A stretch of 64,000 bases of DNA, taken from positions 4,622,585 through 4,686,584 of the forward strand of contig OY969798.1 in assembly GCA_963703165.1 (NCBI GenBank), given 5' to 3'. Below, piece after piece: positions 11,187 through 63,146 of this stretch. Source of the DNA: an uncultured Actinomycetota bacterium (GTDB lineage: Bacteria > Actinomycetota > Actinomycetes > Sporichthyales > Sporichthyaceae). A program made the position numbers and the translations under genes. Numbering within the stretch: the stretch's first letter is position 1; each line of letters starts with the position of its first letter. The notes beneath the pieces are model-generated. The model saw nothing but the letters and a program-made list of their open reading frames with translations. It was not told where the DNA came from and did not search any database.

Positions 11187-11216
11187 GGCCGGCCCGGGAG
11201 GTGTCCCGGACCGGCC
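11187..11216. terminator. GC-rich hairpin between convergent genes (candidate bidirectional intrinsic terminator)
   Basis: GGCCGGCCCGGGAGGTGTCCCGGACCGGCC forms a nested stem-loop 12 nt after the hydroxylase stop and 20 nt before the stop of the minus-strand gene at 11236. Confidence 0.35.
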
Positions 11217-11235
11217 TGAGGCGTGCTGGTTGCTA

Positions 11236-12399: not shown

Positions 12400-12595
12400 T
12401 TCGTGTATCCCCCGTGTGAGTGTCTCTGTGCGCCGTTCCCAACCGGTCGGCGTTGAAGACAACTCTGCGGTGGATCACGAAGATCTACATCGGACGTGCG
12501 GCCCGTCCTGAATCATGTGAATGATGAGTCGCCATCCACCTTTCGGGTGAGATCGGATGAACGCCACCAGAAAGGAACCTGAGCGCCAGACCGGC

Positions 12596-13462: not shown

Positions 13463-13489
13463 CACACCCATAGGTCCTTTCAATCACCT

Positions 13490-13537
13490 GCGACGTCCGA
13501 CGAACACCGTCCTACGGGTCAGTTCGTCGGACGTCGC
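13490..13537 (-). terminator. perfect 16-bp-stem hairpin downstream of the alkene/CoM operon
   Basis: GCGACGTCCGACGAAC-N16-GTTCGTCGGACGTCGC lies 14 nt after the stop of the last operon gene (13551) on the minus strand, followed by a T-containing tract. Confidence 0.5.
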
Positions 13538-14654: not shown

Positions 14655-14676
14655 GGGGCCAGCTCCTCTGGATCGA

Positions 14677-17006: not shown

Positions 17007-17017
17007 GGTTGTCCTTC

Positions 17018-18016: not shown

Positions 18017-18021
18017 CGGAC

Positions 18022-19524: not shown

Positions 19525-19535
19525 CTGTGGGTTCC

Positions 19536-19841
19536 TCAGTCCTTGAACCGGTCGGGTTGGATGTCTGCGTAGATGTCGACCCGGCCGTCGCCCACGACGA
19601 TGCGCCCGTAGTAGCTGGCCATGTTCACCAGGAAGATGCTGGTGTCGATGTCCCGCCCGGCGATGTCGGACAGCTCGGTCATGTCGAAGCTCAGGACGTC
19701 GTCGCACTCGATCTTGTAGAAGCAGTCGCGGAAGTCGATGACCGCGTTGGGCTGACTTTCCGTCACATGCTCGACGGCTGCCTGGGTGTCGGAGGAATTC
19801 ATCAAGGAGATCCCGACGCGGCGCTTGGTGGTGGTGCTCAT
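19536..19841 (-). CDS. etnB: monooxygenase coupling/effector protein (MmoB/DmpM family; AmoB/EtnB-like)
   Basis: The 101-aa protein MSTTTKRRVGISLMNSSDTQAAVEHVTESQPNAVIDFRDCFYKIECDDVLSFDM... Its ATG at 19841 overlaps the beta-subunit stop (ATGA). Confidence 0.7.
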   Translation of the reverse strand: MSTTTKRRVGISLMNSSDTQAAVEHVTESQPNAVIDFRDCFYKIECDDVLSFDMTELSDIAGRDIDTSIFLVNMASYYGRIVVGDGRVDIYADIQPDRFKD

Positions 19842-20875: not shown

Positions 20876-21035
20876 GGACCGCCTCCTCGTTGAGGACCTC
20901 CGAGGTCAGTGACGCTAGACACGTGCAGAAGGGCGTTCCTCTACCGATCCGGATGAAGTTTGTAGGGGAGTGTCGATCGGTTCTTACTCCCATCCGGGGT
21001 AGACAGTGCCGGGGTAGGCGTGGCTGGATGACGGG
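20876..21035. promoter_or_regulatory. divergent promoter/operator region between the alkene monooxygenase operon and the GAF-PucR regulator
   Basis: The 160-bp spacer contains the inverted repeat GGGGAGTgtCGATCGgttcttACTCCC around a CGATCG core. Confidence 0.3.
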
Positions 21036-23166
21036 GTGACGCTGCTGGCTGCGCGGGTCGGAACGACCTGGCCCACGCTCATCGAGACCCTGCTCGGGTC
21101 GAGAGCTGCTGCCGTCTCGGCGCCGAGGGTCGTCACCGAGACCGTGGCCGAACTGGCCGAGGCGCAAACCGTGGGCATTGTCGAGTGGGTGCGTGACGTG
21201 CCGAGCGTCGTGCACGAGGTCGGGCCGCCGTTGACCTTGACCGTCCGCCCGCCGGCGGGCCGGGCGGATGTCGCCGGCGTTCCCGCGGTGGTCGTCCAGG
21301 TCGATGACCACCGGGACCTGGTGGTGTTGCGCCCGGCAGGCGCCCCGGCGTTCACCGCCGAGGAGGCTGCCGCCATCGAGGCGGTCAGCACACTGCTCGG
21401 GCACTCCGCGGCGTTCGGTCGCAGGGAAGCCGCGGAGACGTTGAACCGGCTTGCGCGGGAGATCGTCGGCACCCTCGACCTCGACCGGGTGCTGCTCTCG
21501 ATCGCCAACTCCGCCGCCCGGTTGCTGGCCTCCGAGGTCACCGGCGTGCTGCTCGTGCACGGTCCGCCCGATCGCCCGGAACTGCGCATGCGCTGCACCG
21601 TCGGGCACCACTCGCCGGAGACTGCCCGGCTACGCATCCCCGCCGGTCGAGGTATGGCCGGCAAGGTGCTGGAGACCGGACGGCCGGCCCGGGTGGACAA
21701 CTACGCGACGGCGGAGTCGATCACCAAGGACTACCTGCCGATCGCGATCGAGGAGGGCACGCACTCCGGCCTCGCCGTGCCCGTGCTCGACGCCGGCGGG
21801 GCGATCATCGGGGTCCTGGCCGCCTGGCGGATGCGCCCCTCGGTCTACACCGACGAGGACGAGCAGGTTCTCGTCTCCTTGGCCGGTCTCGCGTCCATCG
21901 GTCTGGTCAACGCGCGGGCCTACAGCGACCAGCAACGGGTGACCGCCGAACTGGAGGCCGCGCGCACGGAACTGGCCGACCGGCTGGCCATCTCCGACGA
22001 GGCGGTCTCGATCCACCGTCGGCTGACCGCGATCGCGGCCGAGGGGCAGGACCTGTCGCGGTTGGCCGTCGCCGTGCAGGAGATCGTCGACGGCCCCGTG
22101 GTGATTGTGCCCAGCAGCGACCGCTCGGGCGCGCGCTGGCCGCCCGGGGCCGACGTCCCGCGCGAGCAGGACAGCCGACCCCTGCGCGTCGTGGCAGCCG
22201 AGAGCGGAAGGCTCCGGGCCCGTCTGGGTCCGGGTACCCATCGAGGCCGCGGGAGTGCAGCACGGCGTCCTGCACGCGCGGCTGCCCGCCCGGCCGCGGC
22301 CGCGGGACGTCGTCACCCTCGAACAGTCCGCCGTGATCTGCGCCCTGTTGCTCGGCCACGAGGACGCCGTTGCCGCAGCCTCGGCCCGGTTGCGTTCGGA
22401 GTTCGTCTGGGACCTGCTGGAGGGCCGCGGCGACGCGGATCAGGACAACGCGCTGCGGGCGGTCGCACTCGGCCTGCGCCTGGCGTTCCCGGCTCGGCTG
22501 CTCCTGCTGCGTGGCCGAGGGTTGCGGGAACTGGGCCGGAGCGAGGGATGGACTGCCGAGCAGGCCGAACGCAACCGCATCTGGTGGGGTGGGCGGGTCG
22601 CCTCCGCCGTCGAGGAGTTGACCGGGCACCTGGTCCCCGTGGCGCACCGTGACGAGCACGTGATCGCCATCCTGCCCGCGGCGGATGCCACGGCGGCCCA
22701 CGCGGCGGCGGCGGCTGCCCGATGTCCGTTCGGCGACGTCGTGGTGCAGGGCGGGCTGAGCCGCGAGGTGCCGGGACCTGCCGGACTGCCGCAGGCGCTG
22801 CACGAGGCGCGCGTCGCACTGGCCGCGGTGCCCGCCGGTGCCGCGGTCATGCGTTTCGACGACCTGGGGGTGCTCCAGTTCCTGGTCGCGCCCTCGGGCG
22901 GGGAGGGCCTGCACGCCTTCGCGGCCGGCGTGCTGGGGGACCTGATCGCCTACGACCGCAAGCACGGCACGGAGCTGATCGCGACGCTGGACAGCTGGTT
23001 CGAGAACAGCTGCAGTGTCGCGGGCACGGCGCGGGCGATGCGGGTGCACACGAAGACGTTGGCGTATCGGCTCCGCCGGATTCAGGAGGTCTCGGGCCTG
23101 GATCTGACCGATCGTCAGCGCCGCCTGGACGTCGAACTGGCGTTGCGGGTTCTCGGCCCCACGTGA
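21036..23166 (+). CDS. GAF-domain PucR/CdaR-family transcriptional regulator (frame switch near 22215-22235)
   Basis: The N-terminal frame (21036..22652) has a GAF domain (LDLDRVLLSIANSAARLL...AIIGVLAAWRMRPSVYTDEDEQVLVSLAGLASIGLVNARAY). The C-terminal frame (22105..23166) has a PucR C-terminal HTH (MRVHTKTLAYRLRRIQEVSGLDL). The two overlap out of frame, which implies a 1-nt indel. The gene is divergent from etnA. Confidence 0.6.
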
Positions 23167-27773: not shown

Positions 27774-29219
27774 TCAGAAGAGCCTGTTGATGTCCGCGAA
27801 GGGCTCCTTCAGCACCATGCCGGTACTGGTCAACTGGAACTCGCGTACGTGCTTGTCGTGGTCGGAGCCGCGCATCTTCAGCATCTGGATGCCGCGCTTC
27901 ATCTCCCCGCCCACCGGCACGTAATGCAGCAGCGTGATCGCGTCGCTGATCGTCGAGACGTGCAGTTCCCCGGCGCCGTCGGCGCTGAGGAAGTCCGTGA
28001 CGCTCGAGGTCACCATGCCGGCCATGGACTGCAACTTGATGTAGTACGTCAGCCCCAGCACATACTCCCGAAAGCTTTTCACCGTCGAGATCCGCTGCAG
28101 GGCGGTGAGGCTGTCGATGGCAACCCGATCCGGCGCGAACGTGTCGATGGTCGACTTCATCCGCTGCAGGTGATCCTCGAGTGAGGCTGCCTCAGGCGTC
28201 TCGGCAACGATGCACAGGCGCCCCGAGTCCTCCATCGCTTCCAGATCCAAGCCCCAGGCGGCGGCATTGCGAAGCAGTTGCGGGCGGCTCTCCTCGAAGG
28301 AATGCAGCAGGGCGCGCTGTCCGGCGCGCACCCCACCGGCGGCGAAGTGCGTGGCGAGGAAGGACTTGCCGGTGCCCGTGGGACCGGCGACCAGCCACAA
28401 CGACTTCTCGTACAGCCCGCCGTGCAGCATGTCGTCGAGCGCGGGCACCCCGCAGCTGATGCGCGTGGTGGAGGTCGTGTAACCCATGGAACTCACGGCC
28501 AACGGCACGATCGCGAGTCCGTCGTTGAGCAGAGTGAACAGGTGCTCGCCCCGCATGTGCGAGCAGCCGCGCATCTTCAGGATCTCGATGCTGCGGCGTC
28601 GCTTCTCGTGCTCCAAGGAGTTGCGCAGGATCGCGACGTTGTCCGCGACGAACTCCTCGAAGCCCAGCCGTCCGATGGGGCCGTAGTCATCCGACCGTTC
28701 GGTGGTGATCACCGACGTGACGCCCGCTTCTTCCAGCGTCTCGGCCAGGCGGAACAAGGTGCGCCGCGCAGGGGTGACGTCGTCGAACTGGGAGACCAGG
28801 GAGCCGATTGAGTCGATCGCGACGCGACGCGCGCCGACGCTCTCGATGGCGTGGGTGATCCGGCTCAGCAGCGGGGTCAGGTCGTAGTCGTTCCCGGAGA
28901 ACACTGTGTCGACCTGGCGGGGCGCGCCGTCGACGAAGAGCCACTGGTTGCGCTCCTCCCAACCGGGGATGTCCCAGCCGAAGGAGCGCATGTTGCGGCG
29001 GATGCCTTCGGGACGTTCCTCGAAGGTGACGAAGACGCCGGGCTCGTCGTCGGCGATCCCACCGGCCAGGAACTGGCACAACAGAACGGTCTTGCCGCTG
29101 CCTGCGGTGCCGGCGACCAGCGTCAGCCGGTTGCGCGGCAGGCCACCGTAGGTGATCAGATCCAGCCCGGGGATGCCGGCGTCGATGCGATCCAGCTCAG
29201 TGGTACCAGCTGACCTCAC
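27774..29219 (-). CDS. kaiC: KaiC-family double RecA-fold ATPase/autokinase
   Basis: Two RecA/KaiC domains, each with a Walker A (GTAGSGKT; GPTGTGKS) and Walker B motif. Length is 481 aa. The GTG at 29219 lies 1 nt after the upstream PP2C-KaiB stop. Confidence 0.85.
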   Translation of the reverse strand: MRSAGTTELDRIDAGIPGLDLITYGGLPRNRLTLVAGTAGSGKTVLLCQFLAGGIADDEPGVFVTFEERPEGIRRNMRSFGWDIPGWEERNQWLFVDGAPRQVDTVFSGNDYDLTPLLSRITHAIESVGARRVAIDSIGSLVSQFDDVTPARRTLFRLAETLEEAGVTSVITTERSDDYGPIGRLGFEEFVADNVAILRNSLEHEKRRRSIEILKMRGCSHMRGEHLFTLLNDGLAIVPLAVSSMGYTTSTTRISCGVPALDDMLHGGLYEKSLWLVAGPTGTGKSFLATHFAAGGVRAGQRALLHSFEESRPQLLRNAAAWGLDLEAMEDSGRLCIVAETPEAASLEDHLQRMKSTIDTFAPDRVAIDSLTALQRISTVKSFREYVLGLTYYIKLQSMAGMVTSSVTDFLSADGAGELHVSTISDAITLLHYVPVGGEMKRGIQMLKMRGSDHDKHVREFQLTSTGMVLKEPFADINRLF

Positions 29220-29220
29220 G

Positions 29221-30228
29221 TCAGATCCCTTCCTCGGTCGCCGGAGTCACCGGAAGTTGCAGAGCCCGGGCCAGAACCAGCGGGGAATCGAACCACCCGA
29301 TCACGCGGACCGGGGGTTCCGGCACGGCACGCAGGACCGTGGGTGCGGCGAGTACCCCGGCCTCCTCGGTCATCGCGAACTTGGATGTCACGTCGATGAC
29401 CTCGACCGACAGCTCGATGTCCCGCACGACGGTCTCCAGTTGGGAGAGCGTCTCCAGCAGCGATCGGGTCCGCATATCGCGCGGATCCACGTAGGCCCGC
29501 AACAGGACGCGGCCGGTAGGCGGAGGGGGCAGGTCGATCGAGGTGCGGTTGGCCTCGACAGCCATCTGTACCGACACCACGGTGGCGTCGTCCCTCGGTT
29601 GGCCGAGGGCGTCGGTCGCGCGGCGGGCGAACTCCGAGGCCCACGCGGCCGCGCCGCCGATCCCGTTGCAGGCCTCGACCAGCGAGGCGATCGCCTCGGC
29701 GGTGTCCACGCCGGGTCGGTCCACGAGTCCGTCGGTGTAGAGAAACATCGCGGTGTCCGGAGCCAGGTCGTGGGCGAACTCCTTGCGCGAGTCGCCGGGT
29801 GCCCCGAGCGGTGGCCCGGCGACGCCGTCGAACAGTTCGACCCGAATGTTGTTGACGAAGATGAGGGGCGGATGGCCTGCGTTCGCGACCCGGACCACGC
29901 GGGCGGCCGGGTCGAGCACCGCGCAGATCAATGTGGCGACGTGGTCCCCGCCGCGAGCCTCCATGGCCGCGTCGAGCTCGGCGAGGACGGCAGAAGGTTC
30001 CTGGGTCTTGCGCAAGGTTCGGCGGACGCGGAAGCGCAGATCCTCCGCGGCGGACGCGGCGTCGGGGCCGATTCCGGTCGCGTCCCCGATGACGACGGCG
30101 ACCCGACCATCGTGCAGATCCACGACCTCGTGCAGGTCGCCGCCGGAGTCGGTAGGCGTCGGGCGCCAACACACCTCGATGACCACGCTCTGCATGTCCA
30201 TCGTGGTGGTGCGCCAGCGTCTGGGCAT
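29221..30228 (-). CDS. PP2C (SpoIIE/RsbU-type) serine phosphatase fused to a C-terminal KaiB-like domain
   Basis: PP2C motifs GDATGIG and DGLVD. The C-terminal 95 aa (VLLRAYVDPRDMRTRSLLETLSQLETVVRDIELSVEVIDVTSKFAMTEEAGVLAAPTVLRAVPEPPVRVIGWFDS) align with cyanobacterial KaiB as I remember it (LYVAG...VIDV...LAEE..ILATPTL..VLP.PVRRIIGDLSD). The ATG at 30228 has a GGAG ribosome-binding site. Confidence 0.7.
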   Translation of the reverse strand: MPRRWRTTTMDMQSVVIEVCWRPTPTDSGGDLHEVVDLHDGRVAVVIGDATGIGPDAASAAEDLRFRVRRTLRKTQEPSAVLAELDAAMEARGGDHVATLICAVLDPAARVVRVANAGHPPLIFVNNIRVELFDGVAGPPLGAPGDSRKEFAHDLAPDTAMFLYTDGLVDRPGVDTAEAIASLVEACNGIGGAAAWASEFARRATDALGQPRDDATVVSVQMAVEANRTSIDLPPPPTGRVLLRAYVDPRDMRTRSLLETLSQLETVVRDIELSVEVIDVTSKFAMTEEAGVLAAPTVLRAVPEPPVRVIGWFDSPLVLARALQLPVTPATEEGI

Positions 30229-30887
30229 CTCAGGTCTCCATGCGGGCGTCAGCCGCGCACGGTGGACGCGTAGTCCGGACCTGCCGCACCACGTCACTCC
30301 TCCCGGGTCATCACCGATCCGCGGCATTGTGGCTCACTCGGCGCGCTGCCCGCTGCGGCGTACGGCACACGGAAGAGCTGTGTTGCGTATGTCTCCCCAG
30401 GTCAGGGAGAGGATCAGAAGACCGGGCCGACGTCCGCGGCGACGATGTCGTCCAAGGCGGGTTCGGCCACCGCGGCGGCGGCCGGGCGAGGCAGGGCCAG
30501 CGTCAGGCCCGAGGCGGCCAGTCCGGCTAGCAGGGTGCGACGGCTCGGCGCGATCACACCGCTAGCTTACACCGTAAGTCTGTGTGGTGAGGATCGTTCC
30601 GGATCGCTCAGAACGGCAGGCGGCGACCGCTCGGCGAACGACGATCCACCTCGAATTGCGGGCGCGGGCGTGCGGGTCGGCGGATCTGGATCTGGTTGGA
30701 CATCGAAGCTCCCCGTCCTCGGCATCCTGACCTCCTCCGGTGCGGCCCGACCCTGGTGCCGGGAGTCAAATACTTCCCAGTAGGCCTGGGGATCAATCCG
30801 CTTGTGAGTAGGTCGTTTCTTGCATGAAGTACACGGGGTGCTTGTTTCGGCTGAAGTCACCGACTGTGAACTCTTATGACCACGCAA

Positions 30888-33176: not shown

Positions 33177-33674
33177 CTACGGGAACAGCACATGACCCCG
33201 ATACGTGCAGACGGTTCCGCTGGGATTGCTGTCACTGCAGGCCCGGTACCAGGCACTCTCACGGGACAGCTGTCCGGTGGTTCCCTCCGACTGCGCGATG
33301 CGTCCCTCGTCCGGGTTCCCCAGGTTGTCCGTCGTCTCCAGCCAGACCGTGGCCGTCGGGTCGACCACCCAGGCAGGCACCTTCTCGACCTTCTGCACCG
33401 TCTTACCGTTCTTGTCCTTCGCCTCCACGGTCCGCTCCGCGAAGCCTTGCTTCACCACTGACGCACCCACCAACACGGTGGAACCGTCGGCGGCCAGCTG
33501 CATACGCAGCTCGCGGCCGTCGTCGAAGTAACCGACACAATCCTTGCCCTCCGTCGCCGGACGGCTGACGCAGGCCGGCGCGGGCTCGACGGTCGGCTCG
33601 GCCGCGGCGGCCGTTCCGGCGGCCAGAGCGGCCACGGCGAGCGCGGCCGCGAGGGACAGATGAGCCATGGTCAT
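33177..33674 (-). CDS. hypothetical secreted protein
   Basis: Signal peptide MTMAHLSLAAALAVAALAAGTAAAA. Four Cys residues. No known domain. Confidence 0.4.
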   Translation of the reverse strand: MTMAHLSLAAALAVAALAAGTAAAAEPTVEPAPACVSRPATEGKDCVGYFDDGRELRMQLAADGSTVLVGASVVKQGFAERTVEAKDKNGKTVQKVEKVPAWVVDPTATVWLETTDNLGNPDEGRIAQSEGTTGQLSRESAWYRACSDSNPSGTVCTYRGHVLFP

Positions 33675-33799
33675 GAGCGATCCTTCCCGTTCCGGGAACG
33701 CCACCACGCGCGAACCGTGGTCGGCGGACCAGTTCGCGTTGGGCCAGGAGCTTATGGGTCAGCGCGGCGCTCCGGTAGCCGTCACCTGCGCGGCTTCCA

Positions 33800-34394
33800 G
33801 CAGGCGGGCGCCCGCGCTCGCCGCCCACGCCTGCGCGGGTCATGCGCCAGCGCCAGTGCTCACCGGTGTGGCAGGGATGATCGCCTCCCCGGGCGCCGCC
33901 GACGTGCAGGTAGCCCAGCTTCGCCGGGATCGCGCCGCTCGCCGTGTTGGCCGGGTCGTGATGGATCTCGACGAGGTTCACCTCGGGCACGTCCAGGGCG
34001 ACCGCGGTCAGGGCGGCAGCGGCCAGGCCGGCGATGCCCTTGCCGACGTGCGCCGCGGCGATCCAGTACCCGATCTCCAGGGCGTCGGGGCCGAGTCGGG
34101 CGTGCAGACCACAGGTGCCGAGCACGGTGCCCGCGCGCGTTGCGCACGACGTAGGGGGCATCGATGACCGGTCCTTCGTCGCCTCACGCCGGCGCGGACG
34201 ATGAAGTCGACGACAGTTGCACGCGAGAAGTCGTGCGTCCACTCCATCCAGGGCCGCAGGTGCTCCAGCGAGGCGCTGATTGCCTCGAACAGCTCGTCCT
34301 CGTCGGCGGCGCACAGCCGACGCAGCGTCAGATCACCGGCGGTGACGCGCATCGGCAGGAGGAACCGTGGCGCGTCCGGCGGTGTCGAGGGCAT
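33800..34394 (-). pseudogene. GNAT (RimJ/RimL-like) N-acetyltransferase, frame-switched; 3' end uncertain
   Basis: The N-terminus (MPSTPPDAPRFLLPMRVTAGDLTLRRLCAADEDELFEAISASLEHLRPWMEW) is in one frame. The acetyl-CoA-binding core (GTCGLHARLGPDALEIGYWIAAAHVGKGIAGLAAAAL...LVEIHHDPANTASGAIPAKLGY) is in another, without an intervening stop. Confidence 0.35.
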
Positions 34395-34670
34395 GAAGCC
34401 CATGCTCCCCGCGGGATCCCGCGGGGAGCAACGCATTTCCCCTCCGTGGCGCAGCGGGAGCGATCAGGCGGGGCGGCGCTCCACGCTGTCGATGCCGCTC
34501 TCCATGATCGAGGCGAACTCGAAGCAGATCCGTCGGTCGGCGGCCAGGACCTGCTCCATGAGGTCGAAGGTGTACTCGACGGCCTCGGTCGGACGCAGCA
34601 CCGCTGCGGGCAGGAACGCGCGGAATGTCTCGGTGCTCGCGGACTCGGAGCATCCGATCGCCGGCCACGC

Positions 34671-40063: not shown

Positions 40064-41902
40064 CTACGCAGGTTCGAAGGCTCCGGCGGCGCAGCGGTCG
40101 GGGCCACCGCTGCCGGGGCGGGCGACTCCGCGTTGGTCGGTGCCGAAGGCTCCGGTGCACAGGCCGCTGAGCACGGTCACGGCGGTGGCCGCCGGGCTGT
40201 CCGGGGCGACCGCGCGGGTGCGGGTGAGTCCACCGTTGTTCGCGAGCCCGCCCAGGCCGGCTCCGACCTCGGGGATGACGCGGCTTCCGGCGCCTGCGCG
40301 GACGCACGTCGTGTCGGAGGCGACGTTCCACCCGGCATCGATCAGTGGCGCGTTGAGCAGCAGGCAGTCGCTCGAGGTCCCGTTGTCGAACAGCGAGGCC
40401 GCCAGCGTCGTCGGGGCGTTGCTCACCAGACCCGCGGCGGTCTCGCTGGGCATTCCCGAGGTCCCCGAGGTGCTGCCCTTGCCTCCTGCGCCTGCCGCGC
40501 CGCCGAGGGCGCCGACGTTGGCCACGGCCGTCACGTGCATCGCGCTGTTGGTCATCGTCGCTGTGGGCCCGGCCAACATGATCAGGCCCGCAGCGACACT
40601 GCCGCCATCCCCACCGTCGCCGCCGGCCCTGGACCGCCCGACCCGCGCCAGGCCCGCCCGCCCGCCGGCGCCACCGGCTCCGGCGCGGTTGCCGCTGAAC
40701 GTGCTGTCGGAGAACCCGGTCACGGCCACGGTGCTCGAGGTGGTGGCCACGGTGCCCATGGCGGCGCCGCCGTTGCCACCGCGTCCGCCGTTGCCCGCGG
40801 GCAGGTAGGGGGAGGAGGTCCCACCCGGTCCGCCCACTCCGCCGACCGCGCCGCGGTGTCCGGACAGCGTGCTGCCGTCGACGGACAACTGCGGGCCCAG
40901 GTAGCTGATCCCGACGGCATCCCCGCCCTGACCGCCCTCGCCGCCGCTCGCGCCAGGCTTGCCCGCCACACCCTTGCCGCCGCGGCCGCCCCGGTTCCCG
41001 CTCAGTTCGGAATCGACGAACTCAGCTTTCGCGTCCGGTGCCGCCGTGTGGATGGTGGTCGAGTACGCGTCGCCGCCCCCGGCTCCGGTCCCGCCTCGCC
41101 CGCCGCGCAGGCCGCCGATCTCGCTCGCGACGACCCGCAGGCGACCGTCGGTGTTGACCCCGATCGCGGAGCCCCCCGCGCCGCCCAGCAGCGCGCTACG
41201 TGGACCGCGCGACCCGGAGCCGCCCGCGCCGCCACGCAGGTCGGTGATCCGCACGCCGTGGAGTTCCGTCGGACCGCCGATGCGGTCGATTCCGTACACC
41301 GATCCGCCCTCGCCTCCGGTGGTGTCCGTGGCGGCAGCGCCCTGTCCCCCGGTCAGTCGGTCGATGCGGACGTCGCTCACCTGCAGCAGGGCGGTTCCCG
41401 CCGCCTTGATGCCGGTCACGTAGGACCCGTGCCCGCCGCTGCCCGGCACCGCGTCGAAGCCGTGACCGGTGATCCGCAGCCCCTCCACGCGGACCGGGCG
41501 CTCGAAACCGGCGGCGATGGTCAGGGCCACCACTTCGGTGCTCTCGGGCAGCGGGGCCAGCAGGGTCGTGGCCGCGGAGCCGGCGCCGGCGATCGCCAAC
41601 GAGGCGAGCGACCCACGGCTGATGTGCACGCCGCCGTCGCGGGCGAAGAACGTGCCCGGTCCGATGCGGATGACGACGTCCCGCCCGGTCGCGGCGGGAC
41701 CCGCCGCGAGGTCGACGGCCTGCTGCAGATTGCGGCACGCGTGCGTCGAATCAAGGCAGTCGTTGTCCTGGGATCCCTCGCTCGCGACGAAAAGTTCGTA
41801 CGGGATCACAGCGGCCGACGCCGACGTCACGGGCAGCCCGGCGATGAGCATCGCGGCCAGCGCGATCACCGTTCGACGAATCCTGAGGGGGGCAGGGATC
41901 AC
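40064..41902 (-). CDS. secreted Gly-rich right-handed beta-helix protein (choice-of-anchor-Q-like)
   Basis: The GTG at 41902 gives signal peptide VIPAPLRIRRTVIALAAMLIAGLPVTSASA. Then an N-terminal CxxxxC module, long GGxGGxG-type repeats, and the C-terminus CAAGAFEPA. Confidence 0.5.
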   Translation of the reverse strand: MIPAPLRIRRTVIALAAMLIAGLPVTSASAAVIPYELFVASEGSQDNDCLDSTHACRNLQQAVDLAAGPAATGRDVVIRIGPGTFFARDGGVHISRGSLASLAIAGAGSAATTLLAPLPESTEVVALTIAAGFERPVRVEGLRITGHGFDAVPGSGGHGSYVTGIKAAGTALLQVSDVRIDRLTGGQGAAATDTTGGEGGSVYGIDRIGGPTELHGVRITDLRGGAGGSGSRGPRSALLGGAGGSAIGVNTDGRLRVVASEIGGLRGGRGGTGAGGGDAYSTTIHTAAPDAKAEFVDSELSGNRGGRGGKGVAGKPGASGGEGGQGGDAVGISYLGPQLSVDGSTLSGHRGAVGGVGGPGGTSSPYLPAGNGGRGGNGGAAMGTVATTSSTVAVTGFSDSTFSGNRAGAGGAGGRAGLARVGRSRAGGDGGDGGSVAAGLIMLAGPTATMTNSAMHVTAVANVGALGGAAGAGGKGSTSGTSGMPSETAAGLVSNAPTTLAASLFDNGTSSDCLLLNAPLIDAGWNVASDTTCVRAGAGSRVIPEVGAGLGGLANNGGLTRTRAVAPDSPAATAVTVLSGLCTGAFGTDQRGVARPGSGGPDRCAAGAFEPA

Positions 41903-42117
41903 CCAGTAGGGACGCGGCGCGCGGGCGCTCGGTGCCGTCGCTCGCCCAAGTGGGGCCGTGTAGGTGACGGGACATGTCCGGAACGTGCGGGCGTGACGGA
42001 TCGGTCCCTCACCGCCCTTGTTCGCCGAACCTCCGGCCCCCACTGATGATCTTGGCAGCGCGGGATGTCCTCTGTCGGCCTCAAGATCACCTGCAGTGTC
42101 CAAAATCCGCACGTGGC

Positions 42118-43776
42118 TCAGCAGGCCGGGCGGGTGGTCATCGCTCCGCACAGATCGCCGTCCGATCGACCGTCCGGGGCCTCGTCGTCCCCGCCGTCGC
42201 CGGATGGTCCGGAACCCCCGCCGCCCGACATGCTCGGGGTGGGTTCGAACGCGCCGGCAGCGCAGGGGGAGCCCAGCCGTGGCACTCCGCGTTGGTCGGC
42301 TCCCTCGCACAGCGGCCCGTCGGTCACCGCGGTGGCGGCGATGCTGTCGCGCCGGATGGAAATGGTGCGGGTCGTTCCGGGCGGGTTCGGTGCCAACGCC
42401 CCCAGGACGTTGTCTCCGGAGAACACGACCCCGAACTCGGTCGTGTCGGGCACGGAGACGGTGGTGAAGGGGCACGGTCCCACGCCGATCACGTTGAACC
42501 CACCGTCGCTGAGGATGTCCAGGTTCGGATCGGCAACCTGGCAGTTGACCTGATTGCTCAGCAGCGACGCCGACATGATGACGGTGGACGGCTGGATCAC
42601 GTTGCCGCCGATCACAAGACCGGCGTCGTAGACGGCATCGGCACCGGGGGCGCCCAGAGAACCGCCCGCGCCGCCCGAGCCGACGGGCCCGGCGGCGTTG
42701 TTCACGATCGTCACATGGCGGAGGTCGCCGTTGCCGGCGTCCTCGACCCATACCCCAGCACCTGATCCGGCTTGACCGCCCGCACCGCCGGGAGCGGTCG
42801 TGGCCGCTCCGCCCGTTCCGCCCGCTCCGCCGGCGTTGAACGCGAACGTGCTGTCGGTGACGTCGACGGCCGCCCCGTCGACGTAGAGGCCGGCACCGTC
42901 CCCGCCCCCGCCGCCCGCCCCGCCGAGAACTGCGTTGGTGGACTGGGCCCCGCCGTCCCCGCCCGCGCCGCCGACGATCGAGGCGAAGGTCGAGTTGTCG
43001 ATGGTGAGGGCGCCGGTGCCGAAGTGATCGACCCCGTAGGCGTCCCCGCCGAGCCCGCCCGGGTCGCCCTCCGTGCCGCCCTCGCCCGCCCCCGCTGCAC
43101 CGCCGACCACATCTCTGATCTCGGTGTTGGTGATCTCGACAGGACTCGTGCCGCCGATGGAGATCCCGATGGTGTCGCCGCCCCCCTCGCCCGCACCGTT
43201 CAGCCCCTCTTCGTCCCTACCGTCCCCGCCGGCGAGGTCCTCGATGAGCACACCGCGGACGGTTGCCAGGCTGCCGCCGTAACCGGCGCGAATGCCGGTC
43301 ACGTCAGCGCGGAAGCCGGGGGTCCCGCCGGCGGCGATGCGCAGGTCGGCGATGGTGACCGGAAAGTTGGCGCTGTCCTCGACCGCCGTGTAGGCGAAGC
43401 TGCCGTACACCGCGGTCCGTAACGTCGTGCCCACCAGGGGGTTGTCGTCGGTACCCGCACCGATGATGGTCAGCGACTGGACGCTGCCCTCGTCGGTGGG
43501 GATGCGGACCGTAAATTCTGGGACGTAGTCGCCGGCCGCGATCCGGATGGTGATGTCGCCCGTCAGGTCGAGGGCCTCGTTCACGGCATGCTGGACGGTG
43601 GCGCAGGGATCCGCCGCGACCTGGCAGTTGTTGGTCGTGTCGCTGCCGGTGTCGTCGACCCAGAGCGTCTCGTTCGCCGCGTACGCCGAGGGGGCGAACA
43701 GGGCGCCCAGGCCCGCAATGGAAAGAGTGACGACGAGACCGGTGGCGGGACGGCGACGCGCGTGAGACTGAGGCAT
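42118..43776 (-). CDS. secreted Gly-rich right-handed beta-helix protein (paralog of 40064..41902)
   Basis: Signal peptide MPQSHARRRPATGLVVTLSIAGLGALFAPSAYA. N-terminus LWVDDTGSDTTNNCQVAADPCATVQHAVNEA. GGAGG repeats. ...CAAGAFEP followed by a Gly/Ser tail. Confidence 0.55.
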   Translation of the reverse strand: MPQSHARRRPATGLVVTLSIAGLGALFAPSAYAANETLWVDDTGSDTTNNCQVAADPCATVQHAVNEALDLTGDITIRIAAGDYVPEFTVRIPTDEGSVQSLTIIGAGTDDNPLVGTTLRTAVYGSFAYTAVEDSANFPVTIADLRIAAGGTPGFRADVTGIRAGYGGSLATVRGVLIEDLAGGDGRDEEGLNGAGEGGGDTIGISIGGTSPVEITNTEIRDVVGGAAGAGEGGTEGDPGGLGGDAYGVDHFGTGALTIDNSTFASIVGGAGGDGGAQSTNAVLGGAGGGGGDGAGLYVDGAAVDVTDSTFAFNAGGAGGTGGAATTAPGGAGGQAGSGAGVWVEDAGNGDLRHVTIVNNAAGPVGSGGAGGSLGAPGADAVYDAGLVIGGNVIQPSTVIMSASLLSNQVNCQVADPNLDILSDGGFNVIGVGPCPFTTVSVPDTTEFGVVFSGDNVLGALAPNPPGTTRTISIRRDSIAATAVTDGPLCEGADQRGVPRLGSPCAAGAFEPTPSMSGGGGSGPSGDGGDDEAPDGRSDGDLCGAMTTRPAC

Positions 43777-43834
43777 TGCCGGATGGTGGGACCTGAGGGA
43801 GCCTCAGGAAAGGGCCGAGCGGGTGGTACCGATG

Positions 43835-47458
<3,624 letters not shown>

Positions 47459-47469: not shown

Positions 47470-47625
47470 TCTCGGGGTCCGCGCCCCGGATCGGCGGATC
47501 GGCGACCGGGAGTTCCTGGCTTCCGGGCTGGGCCCGGTCACAGTCGCGGGACGGCACCGGCCTCGAACCGGTTTCCTCCGCTGGTCGTCGATGAACTGCG
47601 GCAACTCTGACACACCGGCCAGTCG
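47470..47625 (-). promoter_or_regulatory. candidate cobalamin (B12) riboswitch in the cobN 5' leader
   Basis: Minus-strand leader: GGAGGAAACCGGTTCGAGGCCGGTGCCGTCCCGCGACTGTGACCGGGCCCAGCCCGGAAGCCAGGAACTCCCGG. The core GGAA.CCGGT..GA..CCGG..C.GTCCCGC.ACTGT and a B12-box-like GCCAGGAACTCCC follow the cobalamin riboswitch consensus. Confidence 0.5.
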
Positions 47626-47699
47626 GGCCCCGCGTCTACGCTGGGGCTGCGGCGCCTTGCGACCGCGGCGAGCAGGAGAACGGGTCAGGAGCGCGACGG

Positions 47700-55740: not shown

Positions 55741-56498
55741 GTGGTGGTCCGTCGTCGCAGGAGGTAGCTGTCCATGATCCATCCCTTGCGGTCGCGGGCC
55801 GCGGCCCGGAGTTCGCCAATCTCCGTCTTGCATTCCTGCAGGTCCCCGGCGACGAGCAGCTCGTCCGGCATGCCGAGGTAGGCCCCCCAGTAGATGTCCA
55901 GGTCGGTGTCGAGCAGTTTCTCGAACGCCCCGGACCCGTCGAGCATCACGAGGATGTCGTCCAGTTCGGCGGGCATGCCGCCGAGCAGTCGCCGACCTGT
56001 GGTCACGTGCACAGGCTCGCCGAGGCCGGTGAAGGTCACCTGATGGGCCGCGGCGAGCACCTGCAGGCTGGTGATGCCCGGGACGACGTGCGTTGCGAAT
56101 TCCGTGACCCCACGCGCCCGCACCCGGTCCAGCACCCGCAGGGTGCTGTCGTAAAGCGCGGGGTCGCCCCAGACGAGGATGCCGCCGGACTCCTCAGGAC
56201 CGAGCGACGCCGCGATCGCCTCCTCGAAGGCGATGGCCCGCAGGTCGTACCAGTCGTTGACCGCGCCGGGGTAGTCGGCGGCAGCGCGGTCGCGCGACTG
56301 CTCGGGGATCGTTACCAACCGGTAGGGCCGGGTGATGTGCCGGCGACAGATCTCCTCGCGCACCGCGACGAGTTCCGCGGTAGGCGCTCCCTTGTCGACG
56401 ACGAACACCACGTCGAGGTCGCCCAGCACCCGGACCGCCTGCAGGGTCAGTTGCTCGGGGTCGCCGGAGCCGATGCCGATCACATGAACGTTACGCAC
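55737..56498 (-). CDS. cobF: precorrin-6A synthase (deacetylating) CobF
   Basis: VRNVHVIGIGSGDPEQLTLQAVRVL... tetrapyrrole methylase fold. The start is assigned to the GTG at 56498 by comparison with CobF N-termini. The longer upstream ORF extension is Arg-rich nonsense. Confidence 0.7.
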   Translation of the reverse strand: MRNVHVIGIGSGDPEQLTLQAVRVLGDLDVVFVVDKGAPTAELVAVREEICRRHITRPYRLVTIPEQSRDRAAADYPGAVNDWYDLRAIAFEEAIAASLGPEESGGILVWGDPALYDSTLRVLDRVRARGVTEFATHVVPGITSLQVLAAAHQVTFTGLGEPVHVTTGRRLLGGMPAELDDILVMLDGSGAFEKLLDTDLDIYWGAYLGMPDELLVAGDLQECKTEIGELRAAARDRKGWIMDSYLLRRRTTT

Positions 56499-56711
56499 CG
56501 GTACACCTTGCCGGCCACGCTCCGAGCAGGTACTCGGCGCATCTGTCGTGTCGCCGCCGTCACGCTCCAAAGAGCCATGTGTTGTCGCCGCCGTCACTGC
56601 GCCGACCCGGGCACGCCAATAGGGTCGAGGGAGGCATCGATCGCGCTTGGCACGCCCCGCCCGTGCTCAGCGGTCGCCGGTTTCGTCCCCGGCCGGAAGA
56701 AAGAGGCACAG

Positions 56712-59700
56712 GTGTTCGAGCGCATTGCCATCGTCAACCGCGGCGAGGCGGCCGTCCGTCTGATCCGCGCCGTGCGGGAGCTGAACGAGGAACGCGGGCT
56801 GAACATCCGCACCGTTGCGATGCACACCGAGGGTGAGCGTTCGGCAATGTTCGTGCGCCAGGCCGACGAGGCCGTCCTGCTGCAGCCCAGCAAGACGGCC
56901 TCGGTCCCTTATCTGGACTACGCCGAACTGGAGCGGGCGTTGGTCGCCTGCGGTGCCGACGCGGTCTGGGTCGGCTGGGGCTTCGTGTCCGAGCACCCCG
57001 CCTTCGTCGAGGTCTGCGACCGGCTGGGCATCAACTTCATCGGTCCCAAGGCCGACGCCATGCGTCTGCTCGGGGACAAGATCGAGGCCAAGCTCGTCGC
57101 CGAGCGCGTCGGGGTCCCGGTCGCCGCGTGGAGCGGCGCGGGCAGCGTCGAGTCATACGCCGACGCGCAACGGCACGCCTCGGCCATCGGCTACCCCCTG
57201 ATCATCAAGGCCAAGGCCGGCGGCGGCGGGCGCGGCATCCGCAAGGTGATGGAGCCCTCCGAACTGCAGGCCGCCTTCGAGGGCGTCAAGACCGACGCCG
57301 CCCGCTACTTCGGCGACGACGGCGTGTTCCTCGAGGCCCTGGTGACCGGCGGGCGCCACGTCGAGGTGCAGATCATCGCCGACAAGCACGGCAACGTCTG
57401 GGCACCCGGCGTGCGTGACTGCTCCATCCAACGACGCAACCAGAAGATCATCGAGGAGTCCGCCTCCCCGGTGCTCACCCCCGAGCAGTCACTCGAGTTG
57501 CGCCGGGTCTCGATCGAACTCATCAAGGAGGTCGGCTACCACGGTGCGGGCACCGTCGAGTACCTCTACGACCCGGTCCGTAAGACCTTCGCGTTCCTCG
57601 AGGTCAACACCCGGCTGCAGGTCGAACACCCGATCACCGAGGCGGCCACCGGCATCGACCTGGTGAAGCTGCAGATCCTTCTCGCCGCGGACGAGGCGCT
57701 GGCGGGGGAGTGCCCGCCGGAACTGCGCCACGCCATCGAGATCCGGCTCAACGCGGAGGACCCCGACAACGGCTTCTCGCCGGCGCCCGGCAAGGTCGTC
57801 TTCCTGGACTTCCCGCAGGGTCCCGGTATCCGCGTCGACTCCGGCATCGCGCAGGGCGACGTGATTCCGCAGGAGTTCGACTCGATGGTCGCCAAGATCA
57901 TCGCCATCGGGGTCGACCGGAACGAGGCGCTGGCCCGACTGCGCCGCGCGCTGCGCGACACCACAGTGGTCATCGAGGGCGGCACCACCAACAAGTCCTT
58001 CGTGCTCGACCTGCTCAGCCGCGCCGAGGTGCTCTCCGGCTCGGCGGACACCGCGTGGTTGGACCGCACGGGCCTGGACAGCAAGACCCTGCCCGCCCAC
58101 GCCGATGTCGCGCTCTACGCCGTGGCGATCGACGTCTACGCCCACGAGGAAGCGGTGGAACGCGAGGCGTTCCTCGCCTCGGCACGTGGCGGTCGCCCGC
58201 AGGCCAATCACGCCATCGGTCGCGACGTCGAGGTTCGGTACCGCGGTCAGAACTACAAACTGACGGTCAATCAGCTCGCGCCGAACCGGTACCGGATCAC
58301 TGTGGCGGGCACGAGCGTGGAGGCCCGGGTGGACCGGCAGGGCCGGTTCCTGTTCCGGCTCTCCGTCGCCGGCAAGGTCCACCGGATCGTGCTCGCACGT
58401 GGGGCGGCCGATCACCTCGTCGAGGTCGACGGCATCAGCCACCGCGTCGCCCGCGACGAGGGCGGCGTCATCCGTGCCTCGGCACCCGCGGTCATCGTCT
58501 CGCTGCCGGTCAAGGTCGGGGACACCGTCGAGGCCGGGGCCACCGTCGCCGTGCTCGAGGCGATGAAGATGGAGACCCCGATCCTCGCGCCGGTCTCCGG
58601 GCGGGTGCGCGACGTGTTCGCCGTCGCCAACTCGCAGGTCCCCGCGGGCACCCCGCTGCATGCGCATCGACCCGGACTCCACCGACACCGGCCCGTCGGA
58701 CGCCCCCGTGGTGGCCTTCGAGACGGACGGCGCCACCGAGGTCGACCCGCGTACCCATGCCACCGAACTGCTGGGTTCGCTGCGCGCCCTGGTCACCGGC
58801 TACGACATCACCGCCAAGGACGGCCGGGCGCTGGTCTCCGACTACTCCGCGGTGCGCAAGTCGCTACCTGCCGACGACGCGGAACTGCTCGCCGCCGAGC
58901 TGAGTCTGCTCACCGTGTTCGCCGACGTCGCCGAGATGTCGCGTAACAAGCCGGTGGCCGAGGAGGAGCACTCCGACACGCGTGTGCACAGCCCGCGCGA
59001 GCATCTGCACTCCTACCTGCAGTCCCTCGACCTGGAGCGCGAAGGCCTGCCGGACTCCTTCCGCACGCGCCTGACCCGGGTGTTGGCCCACTACGGGGTG
59101 TCCGACCTGGAGCCCACGGGGCGCCTCAAGGACGCTGTCTTCCGCGTGTTCCTGGCTCTGGAGCGCACCGAGTCGCAGGTACCGGTCGTCAACGCGATGC
59201 TCGAGCGCTGGATGGACGTCGCAGATGTCACCGCGGCGCACGACGCCCTCGCCGAGGTTCTCGAGCGGCTCGTGGTGGCCACTCAGATTCGCTACCCGGT
59301 GATCGCCGACGTGGCCCGGGCCGTGCGCTACCGCTACTTCGACAAGCCGCTGCACATGGCGGCCCGCCAGTCCGAGATCTCCCGCGTCCGGGAGCAGCTC
59401 GGGTACCTCGTGCAGAACCCGGCCGCGCCCGACCGGGCCGACCGCGTCGAAGCGATGGTCGTCTCCCCGGAGCCGGTCATCGGGCTGATGAGCGAGTGGA
59501 TCGGCACCGGTACGGCCGACCTCGGTCCGCTGCTGGAGGTCCTGACCCGCCGGTACTACCGCTCCCGCGAGCTGGAGAACGTGCGGTTGTTCGAGCACGG
59601 TCTGCGCCAGATGGTCACCGCCGACTTCGAGCTCAACGCGAATCGGCTCTATCTGATCAACACCGTCGGCGACTTCAGCGAACTTGCGGCGTTGGCCGCA

Positions 59701-62220
59701 TCGGTCGCCGAGGTGGCGGAGGGCACCGCGGCCTTCGAGCCGCGCACGCTGGTCGTGGACATCTACCTGTCCTGGGCCGACGCCCCCGCCGACCAGGGCC
59801 AGGTCGCCGCGGCGTTGCGGGACGCTCTCGCGGAGCTACCGCTGCCGGACACGCTGCGTCGCGTCACCATCGGTGTCGCGGGCGAACTTGCCGCACGGGC
59901 GCACTATCTGACGTTCCGTCCGATCGAGGGCAGCCTCCAGGAGGACCGCCTCATCCGCGGCCTGCACCCGCTGGTGGCACAGCGCCTGGACCTGGCTCGG
60001 TTGAAGAATTTCGAACTGACCCGCCTGCCTGCCGACGAGGGTGTCTACCTGTTCAGGGCCGTCGGCCGGGAGAACCCGGAGGACGAACGACTCATCGCCC
60101 TCGGCGAGATCCGCGACGTCCACCCGTTGCGCGACGCGGCCGGCCGAGTGCTGGCCGTGCCCACGGTGGAGCGCGTCCTCGGTGGTTGCGTGGAGGCGAT
60201 CCGGGCGGAGCATTCGCAGCTGCCGGCAAAGCGACGTGCGGAGTCCAACCGCATCGTGCTCTCGGTCGCCCCGACCGCGAAGGTGCCGCTGGCGGAGATG
60301 CACCACGTGGTGCGCAACCTGGTTCCCATGACCGCCGGTGCGGGCCTCGAGGAGGTCATGGTCGTCGGTCGGCTGCAGGAGGCGGACAACGTCGAGGCCC
60401 ACGAGGTCGCGGTGCTGATCTCCTACCGCCACGGTGCAGGCGTGCAGATCTCGGTCACCGAACGGCCGAAGGAGCCGCTCCCGCCGCTGGACGAGTACGC
60501 GATGAAGGTGCGCTCCTCGGCCGCCCGCGGCACCATCTATCCCTACGAACTCGTCAAGATGCTGGTCGGCGAGAACGGCAACTTCGTCGAGCACGATCTC
60601 GACGACGACGGGACGCTCGTCCCGGTGCGTCGTGCCCCCGGCAAGAACAAGGCGGGCATCGTCGCGGGCCTGGTCACGACCCCGACCGAGCGCTACCCGG
60701 AGGGCATGACCCGGGTGATCCTGCTCGGCGACCCGACGAAGTCTCTGGGCTCGGTGGCCGAGGCCGAGTGCCACCGCGTCTGCGCCGCGTTGGACCTGGC
60801 CGAGTCCAAGGGCTACCCCGTCGAGTGGTTCGCCCTGTCCTCCGGTGCCCGCATCTCCATGGAATCCGGCACGGAGAACATGGACTGGGTCTCCCGTGCA
60901 TTGCGCCGGATCATCGAGTTCACCCAGGCCGGCGGCGAGGTCAACGTCGTCGTCGCGGGCATCAACGTCGGTGCCCAGCCGTACTGGAACGCCGAAGCCA
61001 CGATGCTCATGCACACCAAGGGCATCCTGGTGATGACGCCGGACTCGGCGATGGTGCTGACCGGCAAGCACTCACTGGACTACGCGGGCGGTGTTTCCGC
61101 CGAGGACAACTTCGGCATCGGTGGCTACGACCGCGTCATGGGCCCGAACGGTCAGGCGCAGTACTGGGCGCCGAACATGACCGCCGCCATCCACATCCTC
61201 TTCACCCACTACGAGCACGCCTACCGGGCGCCGGGGGAGCGCTTCCCCCGTCAGGCCTCGACGACCGACCCGCGCGAGCGGGATGTGCGCGACTACCCGC
61301 ATGTGCACCCAGGCAGCGACTTCACCCGGGTCGGGGACATTTTCTCGGAGGAGAAGAACGGCGAACGCAAGAAGCCCTTCGACATCCGCACCGTGATGCG
61401 TGCGGTCTCCGACGCCGATCACGCGGTGATGGAGCGGTGGGCCGGCATGGCCGACGCGGACACCTCGGTGGTGTTCGACGCGCACCTCGGCGGTATCCCG
61501 GTGCAGCTGATCGGCATCGAGTCCAAGCCGATCCCGCGTCGGGGCTACCTACCCAAGGACGGACCGGACATCTGGACCGGCGGCACGTTGTTCCCGATGT
61601 CGTCGAAGAAGACCGCGCGCGCCATCAACGCCGCCAGCGGTGTGCGTCCGCTGGTGGTGCTGGCGAACCTCTCCGGCTTCGACGGCTCACCGGAGTCGCT
61701 GCGCAACACCCAGCTCGAACTCGGCGCCGAGATCGGCCGGGCCATCGTGAACTTCGACGGCCCGATCGTCTTCACCGTCATCTCCCGCTACCACGGTGGT
61801 GCCTTCGTGGTGTTCTCCGGCGCGTTGAACGAGAACATGGAGGTCATCGCCGTCGAAGGCTCCTACGCCTCGGTGCTCGGTGGTGCGCCGGCGGCGGCCA
61901 TCGTGTTCGTCGGTGAGGTGCGCAAGCGCACCAACTCGGACCCCCGGATCAAGGAGCTCGAGGCGGCGCTGGCCGCTGCCGAGGGTTCGGCGGCGGCGGC
62001 CTTGCGGGTGGAGCTCGCCGACCTGCGCAACACCGTGCGGATCGAGAAGCTCGGGGAGGTCGCGGACGAGTTCGAGAGCATCCATGACATCCGTCGGGCG
62101 CAGAAGGTCGGCTCGGTACACACGATCATCGCGGCGTCGGACCTGCGTCCGTACCTGATCAGCGCAGTCGAGCGGGGCATGGCCCGCACGCTCGGAACCG
62201 CTCCTGACCAAGGCATCTGA
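56712..62220 (+). CDS. eukaryote-like single-chain acyl-CoA carboxylase (biotin carboxylase - BCCP - central domain - carboxyltransferase), frame switch near 58655
   Basis: The GTG at 56712 is preceded by an AAGAGG ribosome-binding site. BC domain (FERIAIVNRGEAAVRLIRAV...). BCCP domain (ATVAVLEAMKMETPILAPVSGRV). After a 1-nt frame change at about 58655, a long central domain. Then an ACC-type CT domain (GIVAGLVTTPTERYPEGMTRVILLGDPT...MLMHTKGILVMTPDSAMVLTGK). Combined length is about 1835 aa. Confidence 0.65.
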
Positions 62221-62288
62221 CCCTCCGACAGGAATGGTGAATGGCCGGGCGGCCACCACCGCCCGGCCATTCACTGTCGAGCTGTCGG

Positions 62289-63146
62289 TCAGACCGCCGG
62301 CGCCGACGACGGGGAGACGTCGCCGTGCTTCGCGCCGTTCTTGTGCGGCTGCTCGACCTTCGCGTGGCCCTTGCCGATCTTGGCATCGGTGTCGTCGGCG
62401 TCGGTGTCGTCGCCTGCTGCCTTCTTGACCTGGCCGGGGGCGGTGGCCTTGCCCTTGCCGGCGGCAGGCTGGCCGTCCTCCTTCAGCTGGCCGGGAGCGG
62501 TCGCCTTGCCCTTGCCGGCGGCAGGCCGGCCGTCCTCCTTCAGCTGGCCGGGAGCGGTCGCCTTGCCGTTCTCGCCGTCCTCCTCCGCCGCGGTGACCGG
62601 GCTCTCGACCGGCGCGACAGGAGTGGTGCCGAGAATGCCGAGGCAGAAGGCGGACACCTGCTCCGGTCCGCCGGCGGCCGTGATGAGGCGCGCGAACGCG
62701 GTGCTGTCGGCAGCCTTGCCGGGGTTCTTCAGCGCGTTGCCCTCGGTGGCCGCGGTGCACAGTCCGCTCCAGTCCCGGACCTTGGTCTCCTTGGCGGCCT
62801 TCTCCGCCTTGGCCTTCTTCGCGGCCTTCGCTTCCGAGCCGACGATCGGGGTGTCCGACGGGACGGGAAGGGCGCCGGTGCCGGCTGCCAGTGCGACGCC
62901 ACCCATTCCGGTGACGGCGATGGTCAGCGCGGCGGCCTTGACGGTGAGTACGCGGGCGACACGGTTCATGAAGGGAACGCTCCTCGGGTCGTGGACTTCT
63001 CGCCGAGCCGCCCGGAACGCTGCCAGCGCGGCAGCCTCACCCCGCATGTCCGCGGGGGACGCCGGCGCGGCCGCGGCCTGCAGCAGCTCGGCGAGGCGCT
63101 CCGACGGGGCGTCGGAGCGGAACGGGGGAATCGGCTCGGTGTTCAT
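62289..63146 (-). CDS. putative anti-sigma factor (membrane-spanning, with tandem 19-aa repeats)
   Basis: Its ATG overlaps the ECF sigma stop (ATGA). Central TM helix (VKAAALTIAVTGMGGVALAA). Repeat GKGKATAPGQLKEDG(R/Q)PAA occurs three times. Confidence 0.5.
   Translation of the reverse strand: MNTEPIPPFRSDAPSERLAELLQAAAAPASPADMRGEAAALAAFRAARREVHDPRSVPFMNRVARVLTVKAAALTIAVTGMGGVALAAGTGALPVPSDTPIVGSEAKAAKKAKAEKAAKETKVRDWSGLCTAATEGNALKNPGKAADSTAFARLITAAGGPEQVSAFCLGILGTTPVAPVESPVTAAEEDGENGKATAPGQLKEDGRPAAGKGKATAPGQLKEDGQPAAGKGKATAPGQVKKAAGDDTDADDTDAKIGKGHAKVEQPHKNGAKHGDVSPSSAPAV
62425..62576. repeat. 57-bp tandem repeat (about 2.5 copies) inside the anti-sigma factor gene
   Basis: The unit GGCCGGGAGCGGTCGCCTTGCCCTTGCCGGCGGCAGGC(T/C)GGCCGTCCTCCTTCAGCT is repeated head-to-tail. 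Confidence 0.5.

Follow-up and report, generated by a model that had tools for sequence, protein, structure and literature searches.

A eukaryote-like single-chain acetyl-CoA carboxylase gene in a deposited Sporichthyaceae contig, split by one extra base that is probably a consensus error

Introduction

Among bacterial acetyl-CoA carboxylases (ACCs), the closest described counterpart of the gene studied here is SACE_4237 of Saccharopolyspora erythraea, a homodimeric enzyme of ~200 kDa with both acetyl- and propionyl-CoA carboxylase activity (Livieri 2019, PMC6491548). SACE_4237 is essential for fatty-acid synthesis in S. erythraea, its central region and carboxyltransferase (CT) domain cluster with eukaryotic ACCs, and orthologues have been recorded in many actinobacterial families (PMC6491548). 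Many actinobacteria with a single-chain ACC carry heteromeric carboxylases too, and the activity and oligomerization of the bacterial single-chain enzyme are independent of citrate (PMC6491548). This family of fused-domain enzymes and its kinship with eukaryotic ACCs are already known, having been described in 2019. Here we analyzed a 64-kb stretch of DNA from an uncultured actinobacterium of the Sporichthyaceae (contig OY969798.1; the whole stretch is called the window below, and all positions refer to it), in which the segment at 56712-62220 is one gene for a homodimeric multidomain "eukaryote-like" ACC of the SACE_4237 type.

The window protein resembles SACE_4237 in being a single chain of ~200 kDa with biotin carboxylase (BC), biotinyl (BCCP), central and CT parts, the last two of which are nearest to eukaryotic ACCs. 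Unlike in SACE_4237, its activity and dimer state are predicted, its reading frame in the deposited record is interrupted by one extra base, and it has neighbors that are particular to the Sporichthyaceae lineage, namely a cobalamin (cob) gene cluster and the gene for an ECF-type sigma factor. Its domain order is also that of the eukaryotic cytosolic ACCs (yeast Acc1, 5csk; human ACC1, 6g2i), from which it differs in being ~400-500 residues shorter (1835 versus 2218-2407 amino acids (aa)) and in matching ACC_central only partially. LCC is likewise a single-polypeptide biotin carboxylase in bacteria; it has an N-terminal CT and a C-terminal BC-BCCP part, is without the central region, forms a hexamer and prefers long chains (PMC6491548), whereas the window protein has the reversed domain order and contains ACC_central. 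In the heteromeric actinobacterial carboxylases, which are built from alpha (AccA/PccA), beta (AccD/PccB) and epsilon subunits, the alpha subunit matches the N-terminal 655 residues of the window protein end-to-end. The CT half, in contrast, is only marginally similar to PCC beta, and the two halves are fused in all intact relatives.

Results

A complete set of carboxylase domains

The gene runs from GTG 56712 to the stop at 62218-62220, and its two parts of 649 and 1186 aa join into a product of 1835 aa (open reading frame (ORF) listing and translation; Table 1). Since the deposited record splits the ORF, the full six-domain chain requires the removal of one base, and the protein results below refer to this joined product. 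Its Pfam matches follow each other in the order Biotin_carb_N (residues 1-117), CPSase_L_D2 (122-330), Biotin_carb_C (343-451), Biotin_lipoyl (592-652), ACC_central (1044-1204) and Carboxyl_trans (1330-1776), with ACC_central scoring 57.4 bits against a cut-off of 23.2 and covering profile positions 496-654 of 726. The catalytic and biotinylation motifs are all intact, namely GGGGRG at residue 170 and NTRLQVEHP at residue 299 in the BC domain, EAMKME with the biotin-accepting Lys619 (58566-58568) in the BCCP domain, and SGARI at 1377 and GFDGS at 1655 in the CT domain. Consensus scans for promoters and terminators across 56300-62500 gave no match.

In agreement with the initial annotation of the gene as a eukaryote-type carboxylase, the ACC_central and Carboxyl_trans profiles were both passed, and the best solved-structure matches of the C-terminal 1186 residues were the yeast, Chaetomium and human ACCs. 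The best matches of the CT domain (5csk, 6g2i and 3tv5) had E values of 1e-27 to 1e-20, compared with 6e-4 for bacterial PCC beta; judged by such E values against solved structures, this domain groups with the CT of eukaryotic ACCs and apart from the PccB/AccD type. The central region matched the crystal constructs of the yeast and Chaetomium ACC central domains (5cs4, 5i6e, 5csa) in a sequence search, and the N-terminal 655 residues aligned end-to-end with free-standing alpha subunits (MCC alpha, 3u9s_A; E = 8e-107).

Among 5.8 billion proteins searched, more than 7990 matched, with lengths of ~1820-1855 aa. The top 120 were all 1816-1856 aa long and had the same Pfam set, a few lacking only weaker ATP-grasp-type matches, and the top matches included proteins of Sporichthyaceae (88%), Sporichthya polymorpha (74%), Rhodococcus and Mycolicibacterium. 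Identity to two intact Sporichthyaceae proteins, P0001 and P0181, was 88-91%, and single end-to-end alignments (residues 1 to ~1825) gave 61-62% identity to Rhodococcus and Mycobacterium and 56-58% to Saccharopolyspora, for which genus-level orthologues stood in for SACE_4237. By scanning one genome per species, we confirmed at least 579 relatives among 600 pattern-matched stretches, counting the matches listed. In 77 of the 80 species loci kept, the ORF ran unbroken between the BC N-terminus and the CT stop (median 1829 aa); of the other three, two were ended by contig edges and one (L022) was frame-broken. The family is thus very common in Actinomycetota, and these counts, together with its characterization in 2019 (PMC6491548), do not support the earlier view of the fused enzyme as a minority architecture or the novelty that this view implied. 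When the locus was compared with plasmids by megablast, parts of homologous genes were all that matched, at 74-79%.

Table 1 Positions of the carboxylase gene parts, of the other frame-broken genes and of the monooxygenase cluster in the 64-kb window.
Feature	Position	Strand	Basis
Shine-Dalgarno-like GAAAGAGG 5' of the GTG start	56699-56706	+	Duplex with the 16S 3' tail, -9.2 kcal/mol; equalled at only 4.9% of in-gene positions
Biotin carboxylase (BC) domain, residues 1-451	56712-58064	+	Pfam Biotin_carb_N, CPSase_L_D2, Biotin_carb_C; NCBIfam accC-type models, E down to 1e-140
BC-BCCP linker, in the position of the BT domain	58065-58484	+	Full-length alignment with the corresponding part of MCC alpha (3u9s_A); outside all Pfam matches
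Biotinyl (BCCP) domain, residues 592-652, across the frame break	58485-58668	+	Pfam Biotin_lipoyl, profile positions 8-73 of 73, on the joined protein
Single extra base (CTG-C-A-TG), C58659 or A58660	58659-58660	+	Alignment to locus L001 (CTGC-TGCGC); intact relatives P0001 and P0181
Out-of-frame tail of the frame-0 ORF, non-coding, 95 Arg/Pro/Gly-rich codons and a stop	58659-58946	+	Third-position GC 0.43-0.51
Central non-catalytic region, with the ACC_central match at 59842-60324	58669-60699	+	Pfam ACC_central, E = 1.1e-15
Carboxyltransferase (CT) domain, residues 1330-1776	60700-62040	+	Pfam Carboxyl_trans, E = 6.9e-30
Carboxylase stop codon	62218-62220	+	ORF listing, translation
cbiC (precorrin-8X methylmutase type), extra base near 49749 relative to L001	49210-49849	+	Comparison with L001
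PmoR-like GAF/GGDEF_2/HTH_30 regulator, extra base at 22212, adjoining the monooxygenase cluster	21036-23163	+	Homology to PmoR; comparison with P0121
DUF222 gene, split near 5713	5387-6389	-	Profile positions 5-164 and 194-306 in different frames
Alkene-monooxygenase/coenzyme M-type cluster, soluble diiron type	13551-20905	-	Gene content; the genome is Sporichthyaceae-like

A single extra base interrupts the frame

Third-position GC in frame 0 stays at 0.90-0.98 up to ~58650 and is 0.4-0.5 thereafter, while in frame +1 it climbs to 0.86-1.00, and the Viterbi path of a codon-usage model places the frame switch at 58657/58658. The frame-0 ORF from GTG 56712 includes VFERIAIVNRGE; its meaningful coding ends at L649 (CTG, 58656-58658), and the +1 frame opens at ATG 58660. 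On the evidence of the ORF listing, third-position GC and the Viterbi path, the initial annotation was correct in where it placed the gene, in giving 1835 aa and in its reading of the junction.

Aligned at the DNA level to the closest retrievable locus (L001, 84.7% identity), the 5.5 kb of the gene contain three insertions or deletions, of 3 nt, 6 nt and one extra base, and the last of these, at the junction CTGC[A]TGCGC, is the only one that breaks the frame. Removing one base leaves a single open frame of 1835 codons with no further stops. This alignment and the Pfam matches support the proposal of one eukaryote-type single-polypeptide carboxylase gene whose sole interruption is a +1 change at 58658/58660. 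The junction aligns without gaps to 38 intact homologues (...AG[TA]PL/[LMVI]R[ILV]DP..., the slash marking the break), of which P0001 reads PL-L-RIDP and the equally close P0181 reads PL-M-RIDP, and the joined reading first put forward, ...AGTPL/MRIDPD..., is the literal sequence of P0181. Because intact relatives have either L or M at this position, the extra base is C58659 or A58660. The idea that an inserted A turned CTG into ATG was dropped, as P0181 has a native Met there and C58659 is equally possible.

On both sides of the break the gene is conserved: the window protein retains every one of the 350 columns found invariant across 120 homologues (111 before the break and 239 after it), and the ratio of nonsynonymous to synonymous substitution rates (dN/dS) against L001 is 0.15 before the break and 0.17 after it. 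The break is shared by none of the ~200 homologues examined. A protein search with a 301-aa query centered on the junction yielded fragments of 69% identity or less and missed even known close homologues, and it says nothing either way about the ACC site. The deposited 5,196,240-bp contig carries it, with gene calls of 744 aa (56712-58946, including the nonsense tail) and 1101 aa (58915-62220), and therefore it belongs to the record and was not introduced downstream. No slippery run, homopolymer or neighboring in-frame stop is present at CUG-C-AUG. A Shine-Dalgarno sequence was not found before ATG 58660, where the best duplex (-2.6 kcal/mol) is weaker than at 68% of random in-gene positions. 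The alignment to 3u9s_A ends at ...GTPLLRIDPD, which puts the break 5-6 residues short of the C-terminal edge of the BCCP domain. Its position inside the BCCP fold and the missing Shine-Dalgarno sequence argue against two separate genes.

Other genes of the window are broken in the same way

The window holds at least three further one-base frame breaks, in cbiC, in a PmoR-like regulator and in a DUF222 gene. The cob cluster that surrounds the cbiC insertion is otherwise intact, and the gene call of the record fuses cbiC to the downstream methylase gene (718 aa). For the regulator, a Logan assembly of the public run ERR12037361 contains an intact protein (P0121) of 709 aa that is identical to the window at 708 of 709 residues, with residues 1-392 corresponding to 21036-22211 and residues 393-709 to 22213-23163. 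The flanks of P0121 are the genes of the window, including a neighbor (P0179) with an exactly identical product, and its intact frame is therefore that of an independent assembly of the same population without the extra base at 22212. In the DUF222 gene the shift has the direction of a one-base insertion, while the coding signal stops at ~5387 and the open frame continues to 4366; this gene looks 3'-truncated and is possibly a genuine remnant. Three insertions (ACC, cbiC and regulator) could be placed exactly, and each is a single extra base at a non-homopolymer site. The 6-bp palindromes at the ACC (GCATGC) and cbiC (GTCGAC) sites were considered as a cause and rejected, as the regulator site (AGGCTCC) has none; we took them as coincidence in a genome of 70% GC.

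The broken locus among the 80 compared above, L022, lies on a contig of a metagenome-assembled genome (MFD05513.bin.2.193, 8063-13507) and is an orthologous ACC with three frame changes. Frame-broken fragments of this ACC were found on other long contigs too, and the case of L022 illustrates how often assemblies of this kind break so long a gene.

Two more regions of the window, both on the minus strand, have unusual coding signals. At 33177-34463, two frame changes in the codon model, at 33740 and at 34184, surround a GNAT acetyltransferase that matches its Pfam profile at positions 61-137 only, and this region may hold further frame errors. At 40064-43803, two long overlapping ORFs have no Pfam match, and their coding signal (40134-41867 and 42317-43714) gives out long before the stop codons; a single broken gene or two unknown genes could lie here.

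Origin of the frame break

We consider it likely that the organism has one intact multidomain ACC gene and that the break at 58659/58660 is due to a base wrongly inserted in the consensus of the deposited contig. A consensus error is favored because the gene is otherwise undamaged, the window has more one-base breaks, and the regulator is intact in an independent assembly; judged from this pattern of damage and that one assembly, it is most probably the explanation. The frame switch of the initial annotation is thus present in the record, but it is most likely a sequence-quality problem common to other genes of the window and not a feature of the enzyme.

Several observations weigh against an error. 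The corrected 1835-aa protein, with either M650 or L650, was absent from the protein collection. When JGI metagenome contigs were scanned for the pattern of the junction, neither the form that has the extra base nor the form that lacks it was found. The location of the three placed insertions outside homopolymers is unlike that of most typical long-read errors, and a lineage in which real pseudogenes are building up could equally have several frameshifts in one window. Furthermore, P0121 shows that an intact regulator allele exists in a read set, not that the frameshifted allele is absent from the population.

If the extra base is real, the ACC gene would be a very recent pseudogene or loss-of-function allele, with the cell relying on a heteromeric AccA/AccD-type carboxylase encoded elsewhere. 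This fits the presence of the break in the deposited record, the other frame-broken genes of the window, including a DUF222 gene that also appears 3'-truncated, and the co-occurrence of heteromeric carboxylases with the single-chain ACC in many actinobacteria (PMC6491548). We nevertheless regard it as unlikely, as the 5.5 kb of the gene hold no second lesion, all invariant residues are kept and dN/dS is equal on both sides of the break; in the absence of further decay, any inactivation must therefore be extremely recent. It is also opposed by the similarly fresh insertion in the regulator, which the independent assembly contradicts, by the cbiC insertion standing alone within an otherwise intact cob cluster, and by the essentiality of the orthologue in S. 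erythraea.

It is very improbable that the extra base is real and fixed and that the enzyme works as two pieces, a BC-BCCP part with a disordered tail and a central-CT part started at Met650 (ATG 58660) in the manner of alpha/beta carboxylases, or is restored by a +1 ribosomal shift at CUG-C-AUG: the break does stand 5-6 residues before the end point of free-standing alpha subunits such as 3u9s_A, with an ATG exactly at the start of the new frame, but this ATG is the native Met650 codon in P0181 and is without a Shine-Dalgarno sequence, the BCCP domain would lose its last strand, the 95 nonsense codons in frame 0 make translational coupling unlikely, no homologue is broken at this site, and the locus has neither the conserved site and slippery or stop context of a prfB-like programmed +1 frameshift nor the arrangement of an alpha/beta operon, in which the first ORF closes together with the BCCP domain and the second has its own ribosome-binding site.

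Genomic context

The ACC gene is preceded by four tetrapyrrole-methylase-type cob genes, a PNPOx-like gene and cbiJ, and followed by a hypothetical gene and an ECF-type sigma factor, and these flanks are syntenic with L001. The initial annotation had linked the carboxylase to a neighboring coenzyme M (CoM) pathway. The window does contain a CoM-type cluster, with a MetE-like Meth_synt_2 protein in the position of epoxyalkane:CoM transferase, a short-chain dehydrogenase, and a Pyr_redox_2/dimerization protein in the position of 2-ketopropyl-CoM carboxylase, together with monooxygenase genes for a reductase, two diiron hydroxylase subunits and an MmoB coupling protein. This cluster, however, is at least 35.8 kb away from the ACC gene, with KaiC/KaiB-SpoIIE genes, an SPFH protein and the cobalamin cluster in between. 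Within 10 kb of the ACC gene in the other 80 ACC loci, we found neither the cob and sigma-factor neighbors nor CoM or monooxygenase genes (0 of 80 loci), and the proposed link is not supported. Given the syntenic cob flanks and the distant CoM cluster, the ACC is therefore a gene of the housekeeping backbone.

Other features were seen in the intervening and flanking DNA. A cobalamin riboswitch (Rfam RF00174, 37.7 bits) lies at 47490-47626 on the minus strand, upstream of a 1178-aa cobN gene at 43836-47372. At 27774-30333 (minus strand), a KaiC homologue with two KaiC ATPase domains adjoins a fusion protein of SpoIIE phosphatase and KaiB domains. Downstream of the ECF-type sigma factor, a gene for 285 aa (62289-63146, minus strand) overlaps the sigma stop codon (ATGA), and its product, which carries GKGKATAPGQ(L/V)K... 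as a tandem repeat, may be an anti-sigma factor, to judge by the position of the gene.

Discussion

Sequence comparison establishes the family and the anatomy of the window protein, whose catalytic activity and substrates are predicted by orthology. By analogy with SACE_4237, the BC domain would use ATP to charge the biotin on Lys619 of BCCP with a carboxyl group from bicarbonate, and the swinging BCCP would hand this group to the C-terminal CT domain, which would yield malonyl-CoA (and methylmalonyl-CoA) for fatty-acid synthesis, with the non-catalytic central region presumably serving as a scaffold.

The locus serves as a quality flag for the deposited contig, in which one-base insertions split or wrongly fuse conserved genes (ACC, cbiC, the PmoR-like regulator and the DUF222 gene). 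With several such insertions in one window, the gene calls and pseudogene counts of the record therefore need to be treated with caution. The biological import of the carboxylase itself is small, as orthologues are already annotated in hundreds of actinobacterial genomes. Were the frameshift real, however, it would be a natural experiment that splits a fused carboxylase at the BCCP/CT boundary, and an enzyme made in two pieces or by a +1 shift would represent the natural fission or recoding of a fused enzyme at the old alpha/beta boundary.

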